64,000 nt of DNA. Origin: Salinispira sp. (lineage in GTDB: Bacteria > Spirochaetota > Spirochaetia > DSM-27196 > Salinispiraceae). Below, piece after piece: positions 27,047 through 48,393 of the stretch. Under the pieces are notes generated by a model. That model made no database searches. It had not been told where the DNA came from and worked only from the letters and a program-made list of their open reading frames with translations. Where the stretch lies: contig OZ271918.1 in the NCBI GenBank assembly GCA_965602015.1, positions 3,360,001 to 3,424,000 on the forward strand, read 5' to 3'. How positions within the stretch are numbered: position 1 is the first letter of the stretch; each line of letters begins with the position of its first letter. Both the position numbers and the translations under genes were made by a program.

Positions 27047-28302
27047 TGAAGTGCCCCCAAAACAGCTGATTTCCTCCCCTCAGGCCACCGCATAATCGGG
27101 CAGATCGATCTTCAGCGCACTCACCGGTGTCTTCCAGATCCGGTGCCAGGTCTTCCATTGGCTGATGTCCAACACCAGATGATGAACGAAGGCCCGCTGT
27201 GTAAACATCCTTTTTGCCAACGTGAGTACCCGCCTTCGGTCAAACCCGGCAACCTCACCATGGCTGATATCGTTTCGTCCGTTTATCCGATACGGCTTGA
27301 GCAGGTTATGATAGGCGATGTAAATCATCATCCGCTCCATGCTGTTGTTCACCGATTTTGACCACTGGACACTCTGGCGGACATGACAGGATTGATCCTT
27401 TCGTATCTCCCGATCCAGGTAATTCACCGGAAACAGCGGGTTCTCAGTGGTCCTGACTACCCTCGATGAGGTTCGGTGATGGATAACCCGCCCTGCATTT
27501 TCCAACTCCGCCCAGTCCCGATGAGCGCACAGCTCACGGCGGTATTCGAGTTTTTCATCGCTCAAGAGATAGCATGGCTTCTTCGATGAATAGGCCTTCC
27601 ACCGGGGAAGAATGGTGTTTATCACATCCTGGAAAGATCGCGCAATTTGTCCCCCTGCAATAGGATACCGGCGATTGAGCTCATCGCGCCGGCGCTTTTG
27701 TGCGGGGGTCATCCGCCCTTTGCGCCGCATCTGCGCATAGTCGCACGCATAGACAACCTGGCTGTCGGAACCTACCGCGAGAGTGAAGTTGTTCGGCCAG
27801 TATTGGCTGTACACAAAGCTTTCAAACCCATCAACGGCAATATCCTCATCGATTGTATGATCGCTCAATAACTGGGCCATGGCAGCGATCGCCTGACGGG
27901 ACAGGCGGCTCAGCCGATTGAGAATGACCTTGTCAGTGACATAAAATTCCCGGGCAATGTCGCGGATGCCGGAGGCCGAGTTGATCGAAGAGAAGATGCG
28001 CCGGTAATCGAGGCGATGATGTGTGCGATAATCGAGGTGAAACGCGCTTTCGCAGAAGTATCGACGGCAATGCTTACAGCGATAGCGCTGTGAAGAACCG
28101 AGGCGGCGGCAGTGATAGTGGCCGTTTCGGACAAACCAGCATCGGCTTGATTCTCTGTCGCGATGATGCTGAGAACAGTCCGAGTACGGACAGAAACGAG
28201 GGATTAATGCCATGGTAATCTCCTATGAGCGGGAATCGTGTCATAGAAGACTACTGGCAAAAGAGTTATGTTGATTCGATCAGCTGTTTTGGGGACACTT
28301 TC
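27047..28302 (-). mobile_element. Insertion sequence, IS1-like, bounded by ~22-bp TIRs
   Basis: Left AAGTGCCCCCAAAACAGCTGAT (27049-27070); right reverse complement AAGTGTCCCCAAAACAGCTGAT (28279-28300), 21/22 identical; a single ORF fills the interior; no clear target-site duplication. Confidence 0.8.
27080..28213 (-). CDS. Putative DDE transposase with N-terminal zinc finger (IS1-like)
   Basis: CPYSDC...RNGH...QRYRCKHC zinc ribbon; HTH-like SGIRDIAREF; candidate acidic residues in DGFES, SDEK, NYLDREIR; flanked by TIRs. Confidence 0.75.
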   Translation of the reverse strand: MALIPRFCPYSDCSQHHRDRESSRCWFVRNGHYHCRRLGSSQRYRCKHCRRYFCESAFHLDYRTHHRLDYRRIFSSINSASGIRDIAREFYVTDKVILNRLSRLSRQAIAAMAQLLSDHTIDEDIAVDGFESFVYSQYWPNNFTLAVGSDSQVVYACDYAQMRRKGRMTPAQKRRRDELNRRYPIAGGQIARSFQDVINTILPRWKAYSSKKPCYLLSDEKLEYRRELCAHRDWAELENAGRVIHHRTSSRVVRTTENPLFPVNYLDREIRKDQSCHVRQSVQWSKSVNNSMERMMIYIAYHNLLKPYRINGRNDISHGEVAGFDRRRVLTLAKRMFTQRAFVHHLVLDISQWKTWHRIWKTPVSALKIDLPDYAVA

Positions 28303-33673: not shown

Positions 33674-36600
33674 CTAATAGCGCCAGATAATCAACGCCCC
33701 GGACTGGAGAAGAAACCCCTGTTCCTGCAGAACTTCGGATAACCGGTGTTCAGCAGCGGGCGCGCCGTCGATCAGCTCTATTCGCGCTGAGTTTTTGCCC
33801 CGCTCGGGGTGGATGAGCACCTCCCGGTAAAAGCCGGCCAGAATTTCGCAGAGCTGCTTTTCGGCGACCGCGGGGGCCTTACCGTCGTTCTCTTCTGGTT
33901 GTTTGGCGAATACGATATCCGCGCCCCGGCGCCCGACGGCGATCGCAAGGTGGGCCCGTCCGTTGGAGCTGATAAATATTCCGTAACTGCCGCTTCCCCG
34001 GCGCAGGGGGAAGCCCGGGAGTACCCAGGCGGGATCATAACTGTTGAGCCAGAACCAGGCGGGGGCATTGGGGCGGGCGGGCCGGCTGCCCGGGTCTCCC
34101 GACAGGAGTTCCGGAAGGCAAAACTGGAGTCCCGGAAGTTCAGGGCAAATTTTCCCGCCGATCAGTTCCCCCGAGAGTTCGAGATTCCGGAGCACCGGAA
34201 GCAGGTCCTTCCACAAAAAACTCTTCGATTCGGCGCCGAGATTCTCCCGAGAAACAATGCTCCGGCGTTGCAGAACCTGAAAAATACGGTACTGTGCGTC
34301 TGCGAGAACCTCGCCGGGGTCAGGTTCGGTATCCGAATCATCGGCGGAATAGGACAGGGGGATGTATACCCGTCCGGGAAGCCTGCTATGAGCCGGCCCC
34401 GGCGCCTGCCTTCGCCGCCGCTTGAGATGATGAAAACTCGGCGGTCTATCAGGTTTTCTCGTCGGCGCACCGTGGAACTCCTGCTTTGCTAATCCCCGCT
34501 CGGGTAATCCGGCATGTGGTAATCCAGATTCGGGTAATCCAGACTCGGGTAATCGAGACTCGGGTAATCCGGGCTGAGTCAGCGGGGCCTCGGGTATTTC
34601 CGGACCCCGGGATTCATTGCTTCGGTTCTTTGCTTCGGTATGTAACATTCCAAGGGCGAAGTAGCGCTCCAGTGCCGCCGGCGAATCGCAGCACAGCAGG
34701 CCCTTGCGGAGCGCCGAGCCGATTTTTGTCCGCAGCTCGGCGGACGGCCAGCCGAGCTTTATGCGAAGTTCTTCGATGCCGAATCTTCCGCCTTTGTATA
34801 GCAGGGAGACAAGCGCGGCCTCGCCGTCGTCCGGATGTACCGCATCTTCCTCCGGAGGTCCATACAATGAAGCATCGCTTTCGTGGGCAATAAATGCGGC
34901 GCCGCTTCCGTCCCCTGTCCAGAAAAATCCGCCGTTGATAAATGCGCTTTCGAGGGATGCGGGAGCCCCGGGGCCCAGCCTGGTGAGCAGTATGTCCCTG
35001 GCAAGGGTCTCCGGTCGGCAGCTAAACCCCGAAAGGGCATCAAGAACGGCTTCGGTTCGCTCTGCCGGGCCTGCGTCTCCCGCTGCCCGATGCCCGGCCA
35101 TTGCTCCCGCCTCCTCCGTTGGAGATGATATGGGATTTTGAACGATCGCGTTTTTAACCGCGCAGGCGAACTGTAGTTCGCCTGCTGAAATGCTTCCCCC
35201 CCGGCTGCGCTTCCATCGGCGGGTTATGCGGATGAGCCGCTCGAGAATTACAGGGGAAATCAGCCTGTCCTGCCATTCCAGAAGCTGCTCGGCGGACAGC
35301 AGCCGTTCCACGGTCTCTTCTCCCCACAGCTCAGTCATTCGGCGCCGGTCAACGAAGGCCTGCCAATCCATCCATTCCATGACCAGGGAATCAAGATTCT
35401 CCCCTCCTTCCCCATGGCCCGCCGACTGATAATCATGTATGAGGTCGCGGTGGAGCGACAGCTCTCCCCGCTTATCCGCCGCGGGGCTGCGGACGTGAAA
35501 GTCTTCAAGGGCGGCGCTTAACAGTCCCTCTGCATCGTCTGTGAGGGCGATCAGCTCCTCACGTTCCTCGTTGGTGAGAATCCGGCGGTCGTTGACGTAA
35601 AAGCGGAAATCTTCTTCATCCTCGGGACGGTATTCGTGGTATAAGCGCCGCCGCTTGAGCAGATAATCCCGCTGTACCTCCTCGGGAATTTCCGGCATAG
35701 GGTAGCTGCCCCCCAAGAGGTCTTTTAACATGTCGCGACCGGCGGTTTTTCCGCTAATGGATTCCAGGGAATCATCGGCATAGAGGTATTCGTTGTTTAA
35801 ATCCCACATGAGGTCGGAGGCGAAGGGGCTCGGTTTTGTGCTTTCGATGACAGACAGCGAAATTGCGTCGTCGCGGATGTCTCCCAGGTAGTCCTTTAGG
35901 TCATCGATGGCGAAGTCATCCTCCAGCAATTCGCGCCAGGTTTCCCTGATGATTGGAAAATCCGGATAATCGGATACTGCTTCCAGCAGTTGTTTACTCC
36001 GCATCCGCTGAACCCACAGGGGCGTGCGGGCGTTGAAACCCCGGCGAACCACCAGCAGGGAACGTCCGGAATTCGCCCGGAAACGGGCTCCGAAAATCCC
36101 GCTGCCAAGGAGCTGGGCCCACAGGAGCTGGGGAACCTCTCCGGGAAGGATTCCCTCAAGTAAATCCCGGGGTGTAAAATCCGCCGCCTGGTCCAGGGGA
36201 ATGGAACAGACCACCGCCTCATCGGTGAAATAGGACTGAAGGGCGGTGCCCCGGGAGCGGACGTGGAGTTCCCGGAGGCAGTACATCAGCGGGGCGTTGA
36301 CGCTAATTCCCCAGCCGCTGTGAATGATGCAATGGGCCATGTCGGGGGTGAGGCTTGGATCATACAACATTTCGACGAGCAGATGATCCGAGCCAGGCAA
36401 AGGCGCTCCACTGGTTTCCTTTTGCCCGAGCACCCATTCGGTCAGGGCCTTCCAGGCTTCATTCTCGATGGTTCCGGGAGGGAGCTGCCCGCGGACCGCC
36501 TCGGGGTCCGCATCGAGATCGCTGTACAGCCTGTTGAGAGCCCGGGATGTCCATGGGTCGGAGCCCAGGTTGTCGGCCTTCCAGAACGGGGCGATCATGG

Positions 36601-38248
36601 CGCTCCTCGAGCTCGCCGTCACCCGCACCTGCTGATTATCCATTTCAACGATTTGCCAGACCCGGTTTCCCAGACTAAAGCGGTCTCCCAGGCTGCGCTC
36701 AAAGACGAATTCCTCGTCGAGCTCCCCGATTTTCTCTCCGCTTCCCTGTATCCGCAGGTCAAAATATCCCCTGTCGGGAATGGTTCCGCCGCCCTGATAA
36801 ATAAGCATGCGGAGCCCCTCCCGTCCTTCGATGGCATCGCCGTCGCGGATAATCCGTTGACCAAGGTCGGCCATGCGGGTGTTCTGATACTTTCCGGCGA
36901 GCATTTCCAGGATCGATTCGAAATGGGTCCTCTCCAAATCAGCAAAGCTGTAGCTACGCCGGAACATGCTGTAGAGCTCTTCGGCGCTGCCCCGGCGCCC
37001 CGCGCACTCTGAGACGATGACCTGGGCGATGATGTCCTGACTGTTGCGGGGAATGCGGATCTCCTCCATATTCCCCAGAAGGATTTCCCGGATGAGGGCG
37101 AGGGATTTGGCAATGTCCCGGGGATGAAGGGGGGCGAAAACCGCTTTCGAAATCTGTCCGACCTGATGGTTAGCCCGTCCCACCCGCTGAATGGCCGAAG
37201 AAATGGAGAACGGCGCCTGGAGAATTACGACGTTGTCTATGCTACCCACGTCGATGCCCAATTCCAGGCTTGAGGTTGCGCACACCGCCCTCAGCCTACC
37301 GTCCTTGAGCTCCTGCTCTATCCAGTACCGGTATTCCCTGCTCAGAGACCCGTGATGGGCGAAAACCTGCTGCTGTCCGAGATACTCGTTGAGAAGATAG
37401 CTCGCTTTCTCGGCGCTTCTTCGACTGTTGCAGAATATGAGGCTGCTGCGGTGGCTTCGGATTTCCTCGGCGATGAGGGGTATTTGCCGGTCCCACCAGC
37501 CCTCACCGCGTTTTTCCCCCAGTTTGATCGCCAGGGAGTAGCCCCGGGAACGGATGTCCCGGATGATGCTGACCGGCCGGGCAGCCCCTTCGCTGTCACT
37601 TCCTCCCAAAAAGGCGGCGACCCGTTCTATGGGTTTGATTGTGGCGGATATTCCAATACGGTGTAGACCCCTCTCAGCGCCGTCGGCAGAGCGGAGACTT
37701 TCTAGGCGCTCGATGTTTACCATTAGCAGGGAACCCCGTTTGGAACCGGCGACCACATGTATCTCGTCGAGGATCACCGTAGAAATATCGGTCAGATTCT
37801 TCCGGCCGCTATCCGAAGTGAGCATGATGTTGAGGCTTTCGGGGGTGGTGATAAAAATATCCGGGGGGTGGCGGAGAATCCGGTTCCGATCGGTAGAACT
37901 GCTGTCGCCGCTTCGCACGGCCACCCTGACTTCCCGAGCGCCCTCGCCTGCCTGTTCACGGATTTCCGCCAGGGGGGTCATGAGGTTTTTTTGAATGTCG
38001 TTGTTGAGAGCCTTGAGCGGGGAGATATAAAGAATCCGTCCGGTCGAGCTGCCGTCGATAAACCCGTTGACCGCCCACAGGAAGGCAGCCAGCGTTTTTC
38101 CGCTTCCCGTCGGTGCGCAGATAAGGCAATGGGAACCGCCGGATATGGCCTTCCAGGATGCCCGCTGGATATCAGTGGCATCGGCGAAGCGGGCATCAAA
38201 CCATTGCTGTACCAGAGGATTAAATTTGGGTAGAATCTCGGAATCCAT
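33674..38248 (-). CDS. lhr: Lhr-family (long) SF2 DEAD/DEAH helicase
   Basis: APTGSGKTLAAFL, SPLKAL.NDI, TTPESL, DEIH, SAT, HHGSLS, TSSLELGIDVG, QRVGRA.H, GTIPDRG, GELDEEFVFE. Confidence 0.9.
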   Translation of the reverse strand: MDSEILPKFNPLVQQWFDARFADATDIQRASWKAISGGSHCLICAPTGSGKTLAAFLWAVNGFIDGSSTGRILYISPLKALNNDIQKNLMTPLAEIREQAGEGAREVRVAVRSGDSSSTDRNRILRHPPDIFITTPESLNIMLTSDSGRKNLTDISTVILDEIHVVAGSKRGSLLMVNIERLESLRSADGAERGLHRIGISATIKPIERVAAFLGGSDSEGAARPVSIIRDIRSRGYSLAIKLGEKRGEGWWDRQIPLIAEEIRSHRSSLIFCNSRRSAEKASYLLNEYLGQQQVFAHHGSLSREYRYWIEQELKDGRLRAVCATSSLELGIDVGSIDNVVILQAPFSISSAIQRVGRANHQVGQISKAVFAPLHPRDIAKSLALIREILLGNMEEIRIPRNSQDIIAQVIVSECAGRRGSAEELYSMFRRSYSFADLERTHFESILEMLAGKYQNTRMADLGQRIIRDGDAIEGREGLRMLIYQGGGTIPDRGYFDLRIQGSGEKIGELDEEFVFERSLGDRFSLGNRVWQIVEMDNQQVRVTASSRSAMIAPFWKADNLGSDPWTSRALNRLYSDLDADPEAVRGQLPPGTIENEAWKALTEWVLGQKETSGAPLPGSDHLLVEMLYDPSLTPDMAHCIIHSGWGISVNAPLMYCLRELHVRSRGTALQSYFTDEAVVCSIPLDQAADFTPRDLLEGILPGEVPQLLWAQLLGSGIFGARFRANSGRSLLVVRRGFNARTPLWVQRMRSKQLLEAVSDYPDFPIIRETWRELLEDDFAIDDLKDYLGDIRDDAISLSVIESTKPSPFASDLMWDLNNEYLYADDSLESISGKTAGRDMLKDLLGGSYPMPEIPEEVQRDYLLKRRRLYHEYRPEDEEDFRFYVNDRRILTNEEREELIALTDDAEGLLSAALEDFHVRSPAADKRGELSLHRDLIHDYQSAGHGEGGENLDSLVMEWMDWQAFVDRRRMTELWGEETVERLLSAEQLLEWQDRLISPVILERLIRITRRWKRSRGGSISAGELQFACAVKNAIVQNPISSPTEEAGAMAGHRAAGDAGPAERTEAVLDALSGFSCRPETLARDILLTRLGPGAPASLESAFINGGFFWTGDGSGAAFIAHESDASLYGPPEEDAVHPDDGEAALVSLLYKGGRFGIEELRIKLGWPSAELRTKIGSALRKGLLCCDSPAALERYFALGMLHTEAKNRSNESRGPEIPEAPLTQPGLPESRLPESGLPESGLPHAGLPERGLAKQEFHGAPTRKPDRPPSFHHLKRRRRQAPGPAHSRLPGRVYIPLSYSADDSDTEPDPGEVLADAQYRIFQVLQRRSIVSRENLGAESKSFLWKDLLPVLRNLELSGELIGGKICPELPGLQFCLPELLSGDPGSRPARPNAPAWFWLNSYDPAWVLPGFPLRRGSGSYGIFISSNGRAHLAIAVGRRGADIVFAKQPEENDGKAPAVAEKQLCEILAGFYREVLIHPERGKNSARIELIDGAPAAEHRLSEVLQEQGFLLQSGALIIWRY
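34488..34577 (-). repeat. In-frame 15-bp tandem repeat, ~6 degenerate copies (GLPES-type) in the Lhr C-terminal region
   Basis: ggtaatccagactcg-type units; translates PGLPESRLPESGLPESGLPHAGLPERGL. Confidence 0.85.
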
Positions 38249-38728: not shown

Positions 38729-39618
38729 ACGCAAAAACCCTGGCTGCCCTTTTGGTTACCATGACCTTTTGGGGCTCTTCCTTCGTGGCGAGCAAGTTCA
38801 TTCTGGAAATCTGGCCGCCCTGGGCGTTTATGTTCCTGCGCTTTTTTTTCGCATCCCTGGTCTTTCTCGTTTTGCTCATACGGAGAAAGAAGCTTTATAT
38901 TCCCCGGGATGTAATCTCCCGCCTTCTTCTCATTTCGCTTTTTGAGCCGGCGCTGTATTTTGTATTCGAAACCCTCGGCCTTCAGCGGACGACGGCGGCG
39001 AGTTCGTCCATTATCATCGCCGCCATTCCCGCAGTGGTCGCCCTCTTTTCGGCACTATTTCTGAAAGAACATCTCAGCGTCAAAGGCTGGGTCGGCACCC
39101 TGCTGTCGATTGCCGGCATCGCGATAATTACCCTGTTGGATTCAAACGCCGCCAGATCATCAAGCTCGCTGCTGGGAAACTTCTTCGTCGTCCTCGCGGT
39201 ATTTTCGGCGACGGGATACATCGTGTTGGCGAGAAGCATAGCCGGACGGATTTCCGCATTGCAGCTGACGGCCTACCAGTCATTTTTCGCGGCCCTGTTT
39301 TTCTCCCCGGGGATATTTTTGCAGGGATCCGCGCTGTTCGCCGCCTCCTATGATCCGTTCTTGATACCGGCATTTTTATTCATCGTCCTGGGAGCCACTG
39401 TTGCGGCATTCCTGGCATATAACTATGCCCTGAGTCAGATTCCCGCGCCAAAGGCGGCGGTATTTATCAACGGAATACCGGTGGTGACGGTAATCGTCGC
39501 ATGGGCCGTTCTCGGCGAAACGCTGAACATCTACCAAATCTTTGGAGGTGGGCTTGCGGTCGGCGGACTGATGCTGGCTAACCGCCGGGAAACCGCAAAA
39601 ATTAATCTCGAAGCGTAA
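38725..39618 (+). CDS. DMT/EamA-family transporter
   Basis: FWGSSFVASK, ten TM helices, LGE motif; ATGA overlap with the arsC-like gene. Confidence 0.9.
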   Translation: MNAKTLAALLVTMTFWGSSFVASKFILEIWPPWAFMFLRFFFASLVFLVLLIRRKKLYIPRDVISRLLLISLFEPALYFVFETLGLQRTTAASSSIIIAAIPAVVALFSALFLKEHLSVKGWVGTLLSIAGIAIITLLDSNAARSSSSLLGNFFVVLAVFSATGYIVLARSIAGRISALQLTAYQSFFAALFFSPGIFLQGSALFAASYDPFLIPAFLFIVLGATVAAFLAYNYALSQIPAPKAAVFINGIPVVTVIVAWAVLGETLNIYQIFGGGLAVGGLMLANRRETAKINLEA

Positions 39619-39744
39619 ACGATGTGCGCCGGTATTTTAGCGGCTATTTAAAATAAAAATTATGTAGTGATGGTATGAAAGCGGTGCCTCCCCCGAGATC
39701 CTGCCAGTCAGGGTCTATATTAAATACCGGAGGAGGACAACCAA

Positions 39745-40797
39745 ATGAGTAGTATTATTATATCCCTCGACAGCCATAAACGGTATACCGTGGCTGCAAT
39801 TGAGGACGAAAAAGGAAGGAAATCCTCACAGCGCATAGAACATTCTCACGGGTGTATTCGTGATTTCCTCCAACAATTTGAGCCGGGACAGGAAGTCGCA
39901 CTTGAAACGATCGGAAGTTGGTACTGGATCGTGGATGAGATTGAGGAGGCCGGCATGAACCCCTTGCTGGTTCATGCCGGTAAGTCAAAATTGATGATGG
40001 CCATGTTTAACAAAACTGACAAACTCGATGCTGAAGGTCTCAATAAACTTCAAAAAACAGGCACACTGCCTACTGTGTGGATTCCACCAGGAGAATTACG
40101 TGATAAACGAGAACTCTATCGAACCCGGATGCAGTTCGTTCAGGAGTTGATACGTGAAAAGAACCAAATTCATGCCGGGTTCGAGAAATATGGGTTTCGA
40201 TTCAATGATGTGAGCGATCTGTTCGGAAAAGCAGGTACAGAAGCCTTGAAGAAGGTAATGCCAAAACTCCCCGAGCATACCCGCACCATGATGAAACTCA
40301 AGCTCGATAATCTCGCGTTTATTAAGCAATCTATCACCGACTGCGAACAACGAATGCATGAAGCGTTTGATGAAAATGCTGAAATGAAGTTGGTGAAATC
40401 CATTCCCGGGATCGGATTTATTCTCAGCGCAGTCATTGTGCATGAAATTGGAGACATACATCGCTTTAAGACCGCTGAACATTTTGCATCATACTGTGGT
40501 ACAACGCCGCGCGTTCACTCGAGCGGAGGTAAAACTCATTATGGTCGAACATCGAAAGCATGTAATCGATACTTGAAGTGGGCACTTACTGAAGCAGCTA
40601 ATGTAACCTGTCTTAATCAAAGAAATTGGGCGAACCGACATACGGTAAAACTCTACAAGAGAGTTCGTACTAAACGAAATCATAAGGTTGCTATAATCTC
40701 TGTGGCACGGCACTTAGCAGAAGCAATATTTTGGATATTGCAGAAAGAACAGCATTACAAAGATCCTGCATTAGCGGGTTTGTCCAGACAGGGGTAA
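39745..40797 (+). CDS. IS110-family DEDD recombinase/transposase
   Basis: SLDSHK, VALE, KTDKLDA (DEDD); [21 protein letters not shown] catalytic-Ser loop; GGAGGAGG RBS. Confidence 0.95.
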
Positions 40798-40900
40798 GCG
40801 CGTTTTTGGGGCTACAGCGCGAATACGAGGCTGTGCAAAGTGATTGCGACACCCCTGGAAGGACATTTTCATGCCACGTGGATGGCGGAGATATGACTCG
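40781..40900 (+). ncRNA. Predicted bridge/seek RNA of the IS1111-type element, copy 1 (ends approximate)
   Basis: Hairpin TGTCC-aga-CAGGGGT / ACCCCTG-gaa-GGACA enclosing target-matching segments (40802-40812, 40837-40842); junction-matching segments at 40867-40876 and 40889-40896. Confidence 0.7.
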
Positions 40901-40971
40901 GACAAAACCGATTTGCAGAATTTTTGTAATAGAACATTGAAAACTCTTGCGGGGAGGCACCGCTTTCAGAT

Positions 40972-41178
40972 ATGGCATATAACTATGCCCTGAGTCAGAT
41001 TCCCGCGCCAAAGGCGGCGGTATTTATCAACGGAATACCGGTGGTGACGGTAATCGTCGCATGGGCCGTTCTCGGCGAAACGCTGAACATCTACCAAATC
41101 TTTGGAGGTGGGCTTGCGGTCGGCGGACTGATGCTGGCTAACCGCCGGGAAACCGCAAAAATTAATCTCGAAGCGTAA
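40972..41178 (+). pseudogene. Duplicated 3' fragment of the DMT transporter gene (ATG created by the IS junction)
   Basis: Identical to the last 67 codons of 38725-39618; CTG became ATG at the IS right end. Confidence 0.8.
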
Positions 41179-41304
41179 ACGATGTGCGCCGGTATTTTAG
41201 CGGCTATTTAAAATAAAAATTATGTAGTGATGGTATGAAAGCGGTGCCTCCCCCGAGATCCTGCCAGTCAGGGTCTATATTAAATACCGGAGGAGGACAA
41301 CCAA

Positions 41305-42357
41305 ATGAGTAGTATTATTATATCCCTCGACAGCCATAAACGGTATACCGTGGCTGCAATTGAGGACGAAAAAGGAAGGAAATCCTCACAGCGCATAGAA
41401 CATTCTCACGGGTGTATTCGTGATTTCCTCCAACAATTTGAGCCGGGACAGGAAGTCGCACTTGAAACGATCGGAAGTTGGTACTGGATCGTGGATGAGA
41501 TTGAGGAGGCCGGCATGAACCCCTTGCTGGTTCATGCCGGTAAGTCAAAATTGATGATGGCCATGTTTAACAAAACTGACAAACTCGATGCTGAAGGTCT
41601 CAATAAACTTCAAAAAACAGGCACACTGCCTACTGTGTGGATTCCACCAGGAGAATTACGTGATAAACGAGAACTCTATCGAACCCGGATGCAGTTCGTT
41701 CAGGAGTTGATACGTGAAAAGAACCAAATTCATGCCGGGTTCGAGAAATATGGGTTTCGATTCAATGATGTGAGCGATCTGTTCGGAAAAGCAGGTACAG
41801 AAGCCTTGAAGAAGGTAATGCCAAAACTCCCCGAGCATACCCGCACCATGATGAAACTCAAGCTCGATAATCTCGCGTTTATTAAGCAATCTATCACCGA
41901 CTGCGAACAACGAATGCATGAAGCGTTTGATGAAAATGCTGAAATGAAGTTGGTGAAATCCATTCCCGGGATCGGATTTATTCTCAGCGCAGTCATTGTG
42001 CATGAAATTGGAGACATACATCGCTTTAAGACCGCTGAACATTTTGCATCATACTGTGGTACAACGCCGCGCGTTCACTCGAGCGGAGGTAAAACTCATT
42101 ATGGTCGAACATCGAAAGCATGTAATCGATACTTGAAGTGGGCACTTACTGAAGCAGCTAATGTAACCTGTCTTAATCAAAGAAATTGGGCGAACCGACA
42201 TACGGTAAAACTCTACAAGAGAGTTCGTACTAAACGAAATCATAAGGTTGCTATAATCTCTGTGGCACGGCACTTAGCAGAAGCAATATTTTGGATATTG
42301 CAGAAAGAACAGCATTACAAAGATCCTGCATTAGCGGGTTTGTCCAGACAGGGGTAA
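41305..42357 (+). CDS. IS110-family DEDD recombinase/transposase (copy 2)
   Basis: Identical 350-aa protein to 39745-40797. Confidence 0.95.
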
Positions 42358-42460
42358 GCGCGTTTTTGGGGCTACAGCGCGAATACGAGGCTGTGCAAAG
42401 TGATTGCGACACCCCTGGAAGGACATTTTCATGCCACGTGGATGGCGGAGATATGACTCG
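42341..42460 (+). ncRNA. Predicted bridge/seek RNA, copy 2 (ends approximate)
   Basis: Same sequence as 40781-40900. Confidence 0.7.
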
Positions 42461-42532
42461 GACAAAACCGATTTGCAGAATTTTTGTAATAGAACATTGA
42501 AAACTCTTGCGGGGAGGCACCGCTTTCAGATA

Positions 42533-42680
42533 TGCCCCGAAAACAGCTGATTTAAACAGCGTAAACCGTTTGCATAATGTGATTTGTCTCTCATCCAATG
42601 AAGCCATTGATAAAACTCCTGTTTTTTATTTTCACACAGCGAGTTACACCGCACAAATCAGCTGTTTTCGGGGCAGTACC
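42533..42680. mobile_element. MITE (non-autonomous), left TIR split by the IS1111-type insertion
   Basis: Perfect 21-bp IR TGCCCCGAAAACAGCTGATTT (42533-42553 / 42655-42675); no transposase ORF; TIR nearly identical to that of the IS at 27047-28302. Confidence 0.85.
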
Positions 42681-46539: not shown

Positions 46540-48393
46540 ATGACCGTGGCCAACATGTCATTCACTTTGGCAGAACTCATCCGCCTGGTATCGGCAAATC
46601 GCCGCAGGAGGGTAAAGGACCCCCAGTATGAAAGCGTCGCCGCGTCGAGGCAGCTGGATCTGCGGTTTTCCGGGCGAACCGTGGCCTATGAGGTGCTGCA
46701 AAACCCCCTTGAGCTCTTCGCCGATCCCGCAGCGGAGCTTCCTGCGTTCGCTCTGGTCCTGGCCCCGGTGGAAGCCTACTCTATGGAGTTTCACCGCGAG
46801 ATCCGCTGCCGGTTTTGGATTTTTGCCGGGGAATGCAACTTTACCGATTCCCGTTGGAAGGCCGGGGCGGATTTCAGTCAGAGCTTTTTTCTCGCCGGGG
46901 GTAACTGGTCACGCTCGAAGTTCGTCGGCGACGGAATATTTGAATTGGCTCAGTTCTACGGCGATACTCTTTTTAATGAAGCCGAGTTCAACGCCGAATG
47001 CCGGTTTAATTCCGCACGTTTTCACAAGTCAGTCAGTTTTAGCCTGGGCTATCTGGCGAAGTCCGCATATTTCAAGGACGTGTCCTTTTCATCAGATTGT
47101 GATTTCTCGAACGCCCATGTCGACGGCCCGGCGCTGTTTTCCGCCTCCTCGTTCGGCGGATCTGCGGATTTTACCGCGGCGGAGTTCAGTGATTCTCTTA
47201 ACTTCAACGGTGTCAACGCCCTGGGCCACGTGAACTTTTCACAGGCCCAGTTTCTTCGGGATGTCTCTTTCAGCTGGTATAAATTCGCCGACGAGGTACT
47301 GTTCAGCGGCGCCCGCTTTGCCAGCCTGGTAATCTTCAATGACGGATACTTTGCGGGTAAATGTTCCTTCGGGGACGTCAACTTTGAGGATGCGGTGACC
47401 ATTAGCGGTTCGGATTTCAAGGAGCATCTGGATATGTCCGGAGCTCTCTTTCATGAAAATGCCTACCTGGTTAACAACAGTTTCCGCCGCAATGTGTATT
47501 TCGGCGGCGTAACATTCGACGGCGGCGGGAGGGTGTTTATCGACGCTTCAATGTTCGAAGCGGACAGTTTTTTCACCGGATCCTACATCAACAAAGAAGT
47601 GCTATTTATGAAATCGAACTTCGGCAGGAGAACCGATTTTACCCAGCTGATCATTGGGGAAGCGGGAAAGCTGAACCTGATAGAATGCGTGTTTAACTCC
47701 ATTGTGGATTTTTCTGAGATTGAGGAACTCACCGGCACCATATTCATCGATAAATCGGACTTTATTCGAAAGTGCCTCCTGCAATTCTCGGTAATAAAGG
47801 GAAGTGATGGTAGTTTCTCTCCCCTGATTATCCGCGACGGGGATAAGGTCGATAACGACCTGACGATGCGGAACTTCGCGAGTTTTAGGGAGATGTACAA
47901 CAAAAATAATGAGCTTGATAACGAGCTCGAACTCCTCTACAAATCCAGGGTGTACGAGCGGCGGAAAAACTTCTCCTGGCGCAAGGGGGAATCGGTGATT
48001 TCCAACAGCGGACGAGCGCTCCTTGGGGGGCTGAGCTGGCTGTTTCTCGACCGCACAAGCCGCTACTTTACCGACTGGATGAGGGTCATACGCACCATAC
48101 TGGTGACCATTATTGCCTTCGCCGGTTTGTACGCCCTCGCCCCGGTGGTAAACAGTTCATCCTTGAATCTGGGGAATATCTCCGGCATAACGAGCAACAT
48201 AACTTCCGCAGGGGATCTTCTGGCATATCTCGGTGAAAACCTGTATTTTTCACTTATTACCTTCACCACCATAGGATACGGCGATTTACTTCCGACGGGA
48301 GTTCTGAGAATTTTTGCGGGGTTTCAAGGTTTTTTGGGAATTACCTTAACGTCGGTATTTTTAGTATCCCTGGCAAAGAGGGTACTCGGATAA
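46540..48393 (+). CDS. Pentapeptide-repeat protein with C-terminal two-TM potassium-channel domain
   Basis: Long run of xxF.xA.F units; LYFSLITFTTIGYGD selectivity-filter motif. Confidence 0.88.
   Translation: MTVANMSFTLAELIRLVSANRRRRVKDPQYESVAASRQLDLRFSGRTVAYEVLQNPLELFADPAAELPAFALVLAPVEAYSMEFHREIRCRFWIFAGECNFTDSRWKAGADFSQSFFLAGGNWSRSKFVGDGIFELAQFYGDTLFNEAEFNAECRFNSARFHKSVSFSLGYLAKSAYFKDVSFSSDCDFSNAHVDGPALFSASSFGGSADFTAAEFSDSLNFNGVNALGHVNFSQAQFLRDVSFSWYKFADEVLFSGARFASLVIFNDGYFAGKCSFGDVNFEDAVTISGSDFKEHLDMSGALFHENAYLVNNSFRRNVYFGGVTFDGGGRVFIDASMFEADSFFTGSYINKEVLFMKSNFGRRTDFTQLIIGEAGKLNLIECVFNSIVDFSEIEELTGTIFIDKSDFIRKCLLQFSVIKGSDGSFSPLIIRDGDKVDNDLTMRNFASFREMYNKNNELDNELELLYKSRVYERRKNFSWRKGESVISNSGRALLGGLSWLFLDRTSRYFTDWMRVIRTILVTIIAFAGLYALAPVVNSSSLNLGNISGITSNITSAGDLLAYLGENLYFSLITFTTIGYGDLLPTGVLRIFAGFQGFLGITLTSVFLVSLAKRVLG

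Follow-up and report, generated by a model that had tools for sequence, protein, structure and literature searches.

The stretch of DNA analysed here (the window, 64,000 nucleotides of a Salinispira sp. genome) contains a 1305-bp insertion sequence at 39668..40972 on the + strand. Its TG core is counted at the left end, and these ends are shared by 10 of 10 genomic copies. The recombinase gene (39745..40797, +) encodes a 350-aa protein with PF01548 and PF02371 domains, which scores 224 bits against NF033542 (IS110 family RNA-guided transposase), where the cut-off is 140. Residues D9, E54, D92 and D95 do not vary among the 39 aligned proteins, and S260, within the C-terminal motif G-x-x-P-x4-S260-G, is nearly invariant. 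An 18-bp perfect subterminal inverted repeat (sTIR) lies 8 nt inside the left end, core included (39676..39693, +), and its right counterpart lies 4 nt inside the right end (40951..40968, +); the left motif is conserved in 132 of the 162 loci that we examined. The non-coding DNA measures 175 nt on the 3' side of the recombinase gene and 77 nt on the 5' side. Near the right end is a -35-like hexamer (40941..40946, +) of a predicted promoter whose -10 arises solely across the circle junction, with an 18-nt spacer; the best predicted -10 falls at the identical place in 67 of the 88 guide sets described below.

TG is present at both ends in all 10 copies and in 125 of the 132 elements whose ends were found. 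Both ends share this short core and there is otherwise no target duplication, as is the rule in the IS110 superfamily. Judged by its domains, its core, the covariation of its two guide loops and its handshake bases, the element is a member of this superfamily. The genome has nine full-length copies (98.7-100% identical) and one interrupted copy, at nine independent target sites. The interrupted copy (G000:C1:1706983-1709278) was entered by another insertion sequence, presumably of the IS3 type from its ends, and about 320 bp were lost; a distant IS110 gene (35%) lies directly downstream of it. Elsewhere in the window, a 15-bp tandem repeat with six copies (34475-34585) gives GLPE(S/T)-type repeats in a 1524-aa helicase-like ORF (33674-38248, -). 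A 617-aa ORF at 46540-48393 has pentapeptide-like repeats and a C-terminal TIGYGD, which we take to be a potassium-channel-like motif.

The window holds two copies of the element, because 39413-40972 is repeated exactly in tandem at 40973..42532 (+; no mismatches, with a 2-base TG overlap at the junction). The duplicated unit measures 1560 bp: the element, preceded by 255 bp of left flank in which the 3' end of an EamA gene lies. The second copy of the element occupies 41228-42532. Thus, the true right half of the target, CCCCG, follows the second copy (42533), whereas the first copy ends on duplicated flank. The letters quoted in the original prediction all stand at the positions it gave, and the ends and target that it proposed hold at nine independent sites. 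It had also reconstructed the target in the right sequence, but had attached it to the wrong copy. The duplication could be a minority variant, or an error of the assembly. Single contigs pass unbroken through 39413, from unique DNA up to the element start, in three of four public contig sets (one sample), which speaks against a fixed duplication in that sample. Pieces bridging 40972/40973 were absent from the public-contig matches listed, and such a gap proves nothing.

Each of the nine target sites carries AG-TG-CCCC-N-AA, in keeping with the AGTG-CCCC.AAAAC motif that was predicted for other insertions. Of these sites, seven lie at the ends of an IS1-like element or its miniature copies and one at an end belonging to a second repeat family; the ninth is unique. 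Thus, eight of nine sites lie in repeated element ends, which supports the view that the element targets the ends of other transposons, as had been predicted. Among the five bases left of the core, constancy is 9, 9, 4, 4 and 2 of nine, so that only AG is constant. The one non-repeat site departs from the terminal inverted repeat (TIR) sequence immediately past the guide-matched stretch, and the two end families and the unique site have only guide-matched bases in common. AG precedes the core in 7 of 7 occupied TIR ends and in 65 of 114 empty ends (P = 0.023).

The IS1-like element with the targeted ends is represented in the window at 27047..28302 (-; outer limits approximate), where 1.25 kb of DNA includes a 377-aa ORF (27080-28213). 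There are 12 genomic copies, 96.8-100% identical. The family has 121 ends in the genome, on these 12 near-identical 1.25-kb elements and on many 42- or 143-bp miniature or solo copies. A 143-bp miniature element (42533..42675, no strand assigned) had its left end split by the insertion in the window, about 5 bp inside its terminus. Among 44 host pairs, a direct-repeat signal peaks 5-6 bases outside TG (3.84 compared with 2.67 matches of 8; reached in 0 of 500 shuffles), which places insertion about 5 bp inside the end of the host element. The 377-aa protein scores 33.9 bits against the IS1 profile NF033558, under the cut-off of 100, and it matched no Pfam family; its nearest named Atlas cluster is of the IS1/IS1595 type (score 0.92). 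On this profile score we call the host element only IS1-like. A plasmid search with its protein gave no match. About 30 paired miniature copies of 133-145 bp and 42-47 bp also belong to the family. The outer 5-6 bases of the IS1-like ends vary even between copies that are 97% identical, and the target-duplication signal lies outside them. The ends of the second repeat family (G000:C1:2757300 and seven other places) share their first 9 bases with the IS1-like ends; one of them adjoins a 35%-identical homologue of the IS1-like ORF, and one is occupied by the IS110 element described here.

Of the 267 genome loci and 578 metagenome loci in an alignment-based scan, we kept 80 each, at 47-58% identity. 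With the query, 162 loci were examined. Ends were found in 132 by a search that imposed the sTIR-to-core spacing of this element, 125 of these were TG/TG, and RNA anchors were parsed in 119 of the 125. The 107 loci with complete flanks and anchors gave 88 unique guide sets, or 87 excluding the query. The closest protein match outside this genome is 60% identical, three proteins lying at 59-60%, and no relative above 54% was found among the 99 same-order genomes searched. None of the matches is a close, named IS. A scan of genome contigs with the single protein detected no relative, whereas the alignment scan did recover relatives; viral contigs yielded none. Two motif-similar entries among the rows listed of Durrant Supplementary Table 1 carry no ISfinder name. 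Among the openly available papers listed in our literature searches there was neither a published account of the clade nor the phrase 'TG core'. The clade is apparently uncatalogued.

We compared each guide with the element's own DNA and with that of shuffled partners (n = 87). Target guide 1 showed 0.70 identity to its own DNA compared with 0.34 for shuffled partners, target guide 2 showed 0.83 compared with 0.34, donor guide 1 (the seven bases ahead of a conserved CA) showed 0.66 compared with 0.53, and donor guide 2 showed 1.00 compared with 0.87. In every case 0 of 2000 shuffles reached the observed value. Cross-loop controls were without signal (0.28/0.28 and 0.27/0.27, n = 87). Relatives are related by descent and shuffles therefore overstate significance. 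Clustering of the proteins at 80, 70 and 65% (n = 57, 34 and 16), which lessens the effect of kinship and does not abolish it, left all four guides at 0 of 5000. The relatives with different guides occupy 57 different core-flanking motifs that match their own guides. Many targets of the relatives L031-L190 have the form (C)GCAA-TG-AC or GGAA-TG-AC, often after TTCGCT-like flanks, which suggests a widespread repeat family. The targets of other relatives (for example L052, L055 and L186) look like T-loop flanks of tRNA genes.

The handshake bases, the two bases that follow TG in each loop, also covary. Those of the donor loop match the target at 0.76 compared with 0.55 when shuffled (first base 0.82 compared with 0.48), and those of the target loop match the donor at 0.87 compared with 0.80; 0 of 2000 shuffles reached the observed value for either post-exchange pairing. 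When the donor-loop bases were compared with the element's own donor, which is the pre-exchange reading, there was no covariation (0.37/0.37). After clustering at 80, 70 and 65%, the donor-loop handshake stood at 0, 0 and 48 of 5000 and the target-loop handshake faded (31, 168 and 628 of 5000). In 87 of 88 guide sets exchange raises the number of handshake pairs; the query has one pair before it and three afterwards. As judged by covariation, the four guides and the handshake bases follow each element's own target and donor.

The predicted core of the bridge RNA spans 40779..40906, and its 5' stems overlap the last recombinase codons; all of its features are on the + strand. Its structure was read from an alignment of 58 sequences (A2), in which the cells of five helices are 91% paired, with a covariation of 0.42 compared with 0.16 for shuffled and 0.06-0.11 for slid partners. 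RNAalifold recovers four of the five. A closing helix (40779..40785 with 40900-40906) is 74% paired, with two-sided changes in six of seven pairs; these statistics are biased towards support because the helix was found by a partner scan on A2 itself. Within it, the outer stem CAGGGGT/ACCCCTG (40789..40795 with 40851-40857) and the next helix (40799-40802 with 40845-40848) lead to the target-binding loop. There, target guide 1 (40803..40812) is complementary to the top strand on the right side of the core and includes one core base only. It is followed by an inner stem-loop (40813..40835; helix 4 by structure covariation) and by target guide 2, with 5 nt + TG (40836-40842) and the handshake bases AT (40843-40844), which fit the donor once exchange has taken place (whole segment 40836..40844). 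The donor-binding loop is built alike. Donor guide 1, in the register that covaries, is 7 nt + CA (40863..40871), the inner stem-loop TGCCA/TGGCG (40872..40887) is 97% paired, and donor guide 2 (40889..40897) comprises 5 nt + TG (40889-40895) and the handshake bases AC (40896-40897). The guides are identical in 10 of 10 genomic copies, and the two changes within the RNA core fall at positions that the model leaves unpaired. The RNA has no Rfam match at E <= 1. In 10 of 88 guide sets, the query and L047, L052, L053, L055, L111 and L113 among them, target guide 1 (read at window positions 40803-40813) has no second core base. The donor guide of IS621 likewise has one core base.

The original prediction had read four matching segments in this region. 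We gauged their chance matches with 600 dinucleotide shuffles of 40771-40930. The first segment is upheld by its covariation; an equal match arises in 2.7% of shuffles. Its proposed left edge was one base too long, as G40802 belongs to the conserved helix 40799-40802/40845-40848. This segment matches 10 of 11 bases at eight of the nine sites and 7 of 11 at one, and its constant mismatch, U40807, is opposite a position at which the targets differ (C, G or T). The second segment is also upheld by its covariation, though a four-base match arises in 67% of shuffles. The fourth segment is sound up to its last base; a match as good arises in 0.5% of shuffles. A40896 is a handshake base, and the 8/8 match that was reported is thus seven guide bases plus one handshake base. 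Across the guide sets this position follows the target, not the donor; in the query it happens to match the donor, as in 12 others. The third segment (40867-40876) fails. Its identity to the donor is 0.49 with either true or shuffled partners (reached in 1060 of 2000 shuffles), and a 9/10 match arises by chance in 1.0%. Its GCCA is the 5' arm of the donor inner stem, which is kept by two-sided changes, and its last five bases lie in this stem-loop.

The stems fared similarly. The inner stem ACAGC/GCTGT and the upper outer stem CAGGGGT/ACCCCTG were confirmed (94% of cells paired), whereas the lower outer stem TGTCC/GGACA (3' arm at 40861-65) paired no more than shuffled sequences (43.4% compared with 42.9%), and the partner that covaries is 40900-40906. 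Folding of the single sequence slightly favours the lower stem (-36.5 compared with -35.8 kcal/mol), and a change at 40861 in one genomic copy breaks it. On the domains, the core and the covariation, the general prediction of an IS110-family recombinase with a TG core and a readable downstream guide RNA is supported, and the covariation of guides with targets that it called for appears in the relatives.

The donor side of the query itself is weak. Donor guide 1 has three Watson-Crick and two G-U pairs among its seven positions, with no Watson-Crick pair at any of the three covarying positions. The defect is present in 3 of 88 guide sets including the query, and the other two look by eye to be mis-anchored in A2. 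Additionally, the query is one of 13 guide sets of 88 in which the first handshake base of the donor loop already pairs with the donor ahead of exchange. In IS621 such pairing strongly lowered activity, according to the available parts of PMC11208158.

Such a weak donor guide 1, only partly matched in the clade, would be in line with the target loop alone being at work. In this seek-RNA model the protein would recognise the ends of the element through the sTIRs, which are long here, and the donor matches would be relics. The accessible text on ISEc11 reports that short, target-only seekRNAs (82-96 nt) are the main species and are sufficient (PMC11187229). We consider this account unlikely for the present clade. 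Although the right ends are of several kinds, donor guide 2 matches its own donor at five of five positions in 87 of 87 relatives. Covariation is also seen for donor guide 1 and for the handshake of the donor loop, and relics would not follow the target.

The same weakness could have a different origin, in which the donor guide of this one element has slipped. The donor loop would have shifted to 40867-40876 with the inner stem opened, CA at 40875-76 would read the TG, and the ancestral register would have decayed to wobble pairs. This slipped register scores 9/10 against the left end here, compared with at most 7/10 in 87 relatives, a level reached by shuffling in 1%. Of 21 guide sets with a donor that starts with ATGG, the query alone has TT without C at the two positions that face G. 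The duplication adds a further point. Its junction joins the right end of the element, at the core, to a TG inside the EamA gene. When compared with the four canonical guides, this junction scored 3/7, 1/7, 0/5 and 1/5 and was rejected as a match. It scores 6/8 against the slipped register, a level reached by 944 of 229,229 TG sites on one genome strand (0.4%); in the 5 kb upstream only 1 of 290 sites reaches it, and that site is the junction at 39413.

Several observations speak against slippage. The slipped register has no covariation in the clade, and the inner stem that it would open is preserved by 11 two-sided changes at the A40876 pair; melting it would cost about 7.6 kcal/mol. The bases gained are common transitions that retain G-U pairs in the old register, and TCAT, which supplies four of the ten matches, does not vary within the clade. 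Moreover, the normal core is used in 10 of 10 copies, and the junction is a single event against which about five registers were tried. According to the available part of one report, tandem expansion at IS110 loci typically gives one-sided junctions, whose far side need not match (10.64898/2026.08.14.744561). What can be consulted of this report and of a second (10.64898/2026.08.31.748434) describes half-match expansion in which the boundary of the repeat unit keeps only the left-donor arm, as at 40972/40973; here there is one putative event, seen in an assembly, and the duplication was not seen fixed in public contigs. We therefore find it improbable that the donor loop has moved, and also that this element shows a bridge RNA midway through a change of register, with a guide slipped by 5 bases that captured an off-target TG and made the 1560-bp duplication. 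If true, slippage would be a natural route of reprogramming, instead of point change.

It is very improbable that the end complex or structure of the host transposon directs target choice, with sequence matches being secondary: insertions do favour repeated ends and occupy only 7 of 72 AG-preceded TIR ends, but relatives with other guides sit in motifs that match their own guides, and the guide-matched bases are all that the two end families share with the unique site.

Our preferred reading, a bridge RNA with two working loops, places the element close to known systems. RNA-guided targeting by IS1111-type elements with a downstream RNA has been published, as the accessible parts of PMC11187229, PMC11208160 and the review PMC13604230 describe, and the mechanism class has been known since 2024 (PMC11187229, PMC11208160). 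IS4321 and IS5075 target the TIRs of Tn21, and IS1383 targets the inverted repeats of IS1384, to go by titles cited in PMC11208160 and PMC13626964. The novelty implied by the original prediction was thus too high on both counts. Like the element described here, IS4321/IS5075 and IS1383 are IS1111-type elements that enter the inverted repeats of other transposable elements; they differ in protein identity (23-25%) and in the host, which here is an IS1-like family. The recombinase is 23% identical to that of IS5075 over 84%. In a tree with one labelled reference, eight members of the clade make up a separate branch (99/99); IS5075, on a long branch that is not firmly placed, does not group with them.

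With the IS1111-group seekRNA elements ISEc11, ISPa11, ISKpn4 and ISPst6, as far as they are described in the available text of Siddiquee et al. 2024 (PMC11187229), our element shares sTIRs, a downstream non-coding region, a junction promoter (predicted here), a protein of 330-350 aa, and a guide pairing with the top strand that lies 5' of the guide pairing with the bottom strand. The sTIRs are 18 bp here, compared with usually 11-13 (PMC11187229) or a range of 7-17 bp (PMC11208160) in the passages that we could consult. In the circle junction 12 nt separate the sTIRs (6 + core 2 + 4), compared with 10 (7+3) or 9 in the IS1111 group (PMC11187229, in part), so the terminal extensions beyond the sTIRs are not the 7 (or 6) plus 3 bp of that group. 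The C-terminal motif is GTTP..SSG here and GL-P..S/TG there. Donor loop and handshake bases covary here and are not addressed in the available portion of PMC11187229. The IS1111-type assignment of the original prediction thus holds for the sTIRs, the downstream region and the order of the guides, and does not hold for the junction spacing. On these features the element appears to work like an IS1111-type bridge system that only partly satisfies strict IS1111 membership.

The guide arrangement resembles that of IS621 (Durrant et al. 2024, PMC11208160; Hiraizumi et al. 2024, PMC11208158; PMC13626964; each available in part). In both there are four guides, of 7 + core and 5 + core + 2 handshake bases, a DEDD + serine catalytic set and a junction promoter (predicted here), and wild-type IS621 also has one handshake pair before and three after exchange (PMC13626964). 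The map of 7+2 and 5+2+2 per loop equals the IS621 guide track in the portion seen of supplement 7 to PMC11208160, on the opposite DNA strand. Unlike in IS621, the RNA lies after the gene here, the core is CA in the IS621 frame rather than CT, and the donor loop is in a multiloop, which PMC11208160, in the part available, notes for many IS1111 elements. The proteins are similar in the C-terminal half only (E 4e-11), and IS621 and ISCro4 were the only solved structures matched, in that half.

Based on these comparisons, we propose a model in which the tail of the element very probably encodes a folded guide RNA that steers insertion into the ends of other elements. We regard it as highly likely that this is an active IS110-family bridge-recombinase element with an IS1111-like layout and a donor guide at 40863-40871. 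By analogy with IS621 and ISEc11, the element would leave as a circle, in which a single TG core connects the right end to the left end. The circle junction may then create a sigma70-like promoter that transcribes the recombinase and the RNA downstream. As covariation indicates, an internal loop of the folded RNA would bind the target, and a second loop, set in a three-way junction, would bind the donor; both carry 7 nt + CA on the 5' side and, on the 3' side, 5 nt + TG followed by 2 handshake bases. The target loop appears to specify AG-TG-CCCC-N-AA, which in this genome is common to the IS1-like ends, their miniature copies and the second repeat family; the element would therefore land about 5 bp inside them, in intergenic DNA. 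Four recombinase subunits would cut at the core through serine-DNA links and then exchange strands, and the handshake pairing would favour insertion over excision, if the reaction proceeds as in IS621.

The mechanism is already known and the element thus brings no new principle. With more than 120 elements whose ends can be read, a core other than CT and a full map of its guides, this large clade adds to the candidates for programmable recombinases. The clade also bears on the difference between the seekRNA and bridge-RNA descriptions, as its donor loop and handshake covary despite an IS1111-like layout. As regards the host, the element lives as a parasite of another transposon family, whose ends it splits and which it thereby probably immobilises.
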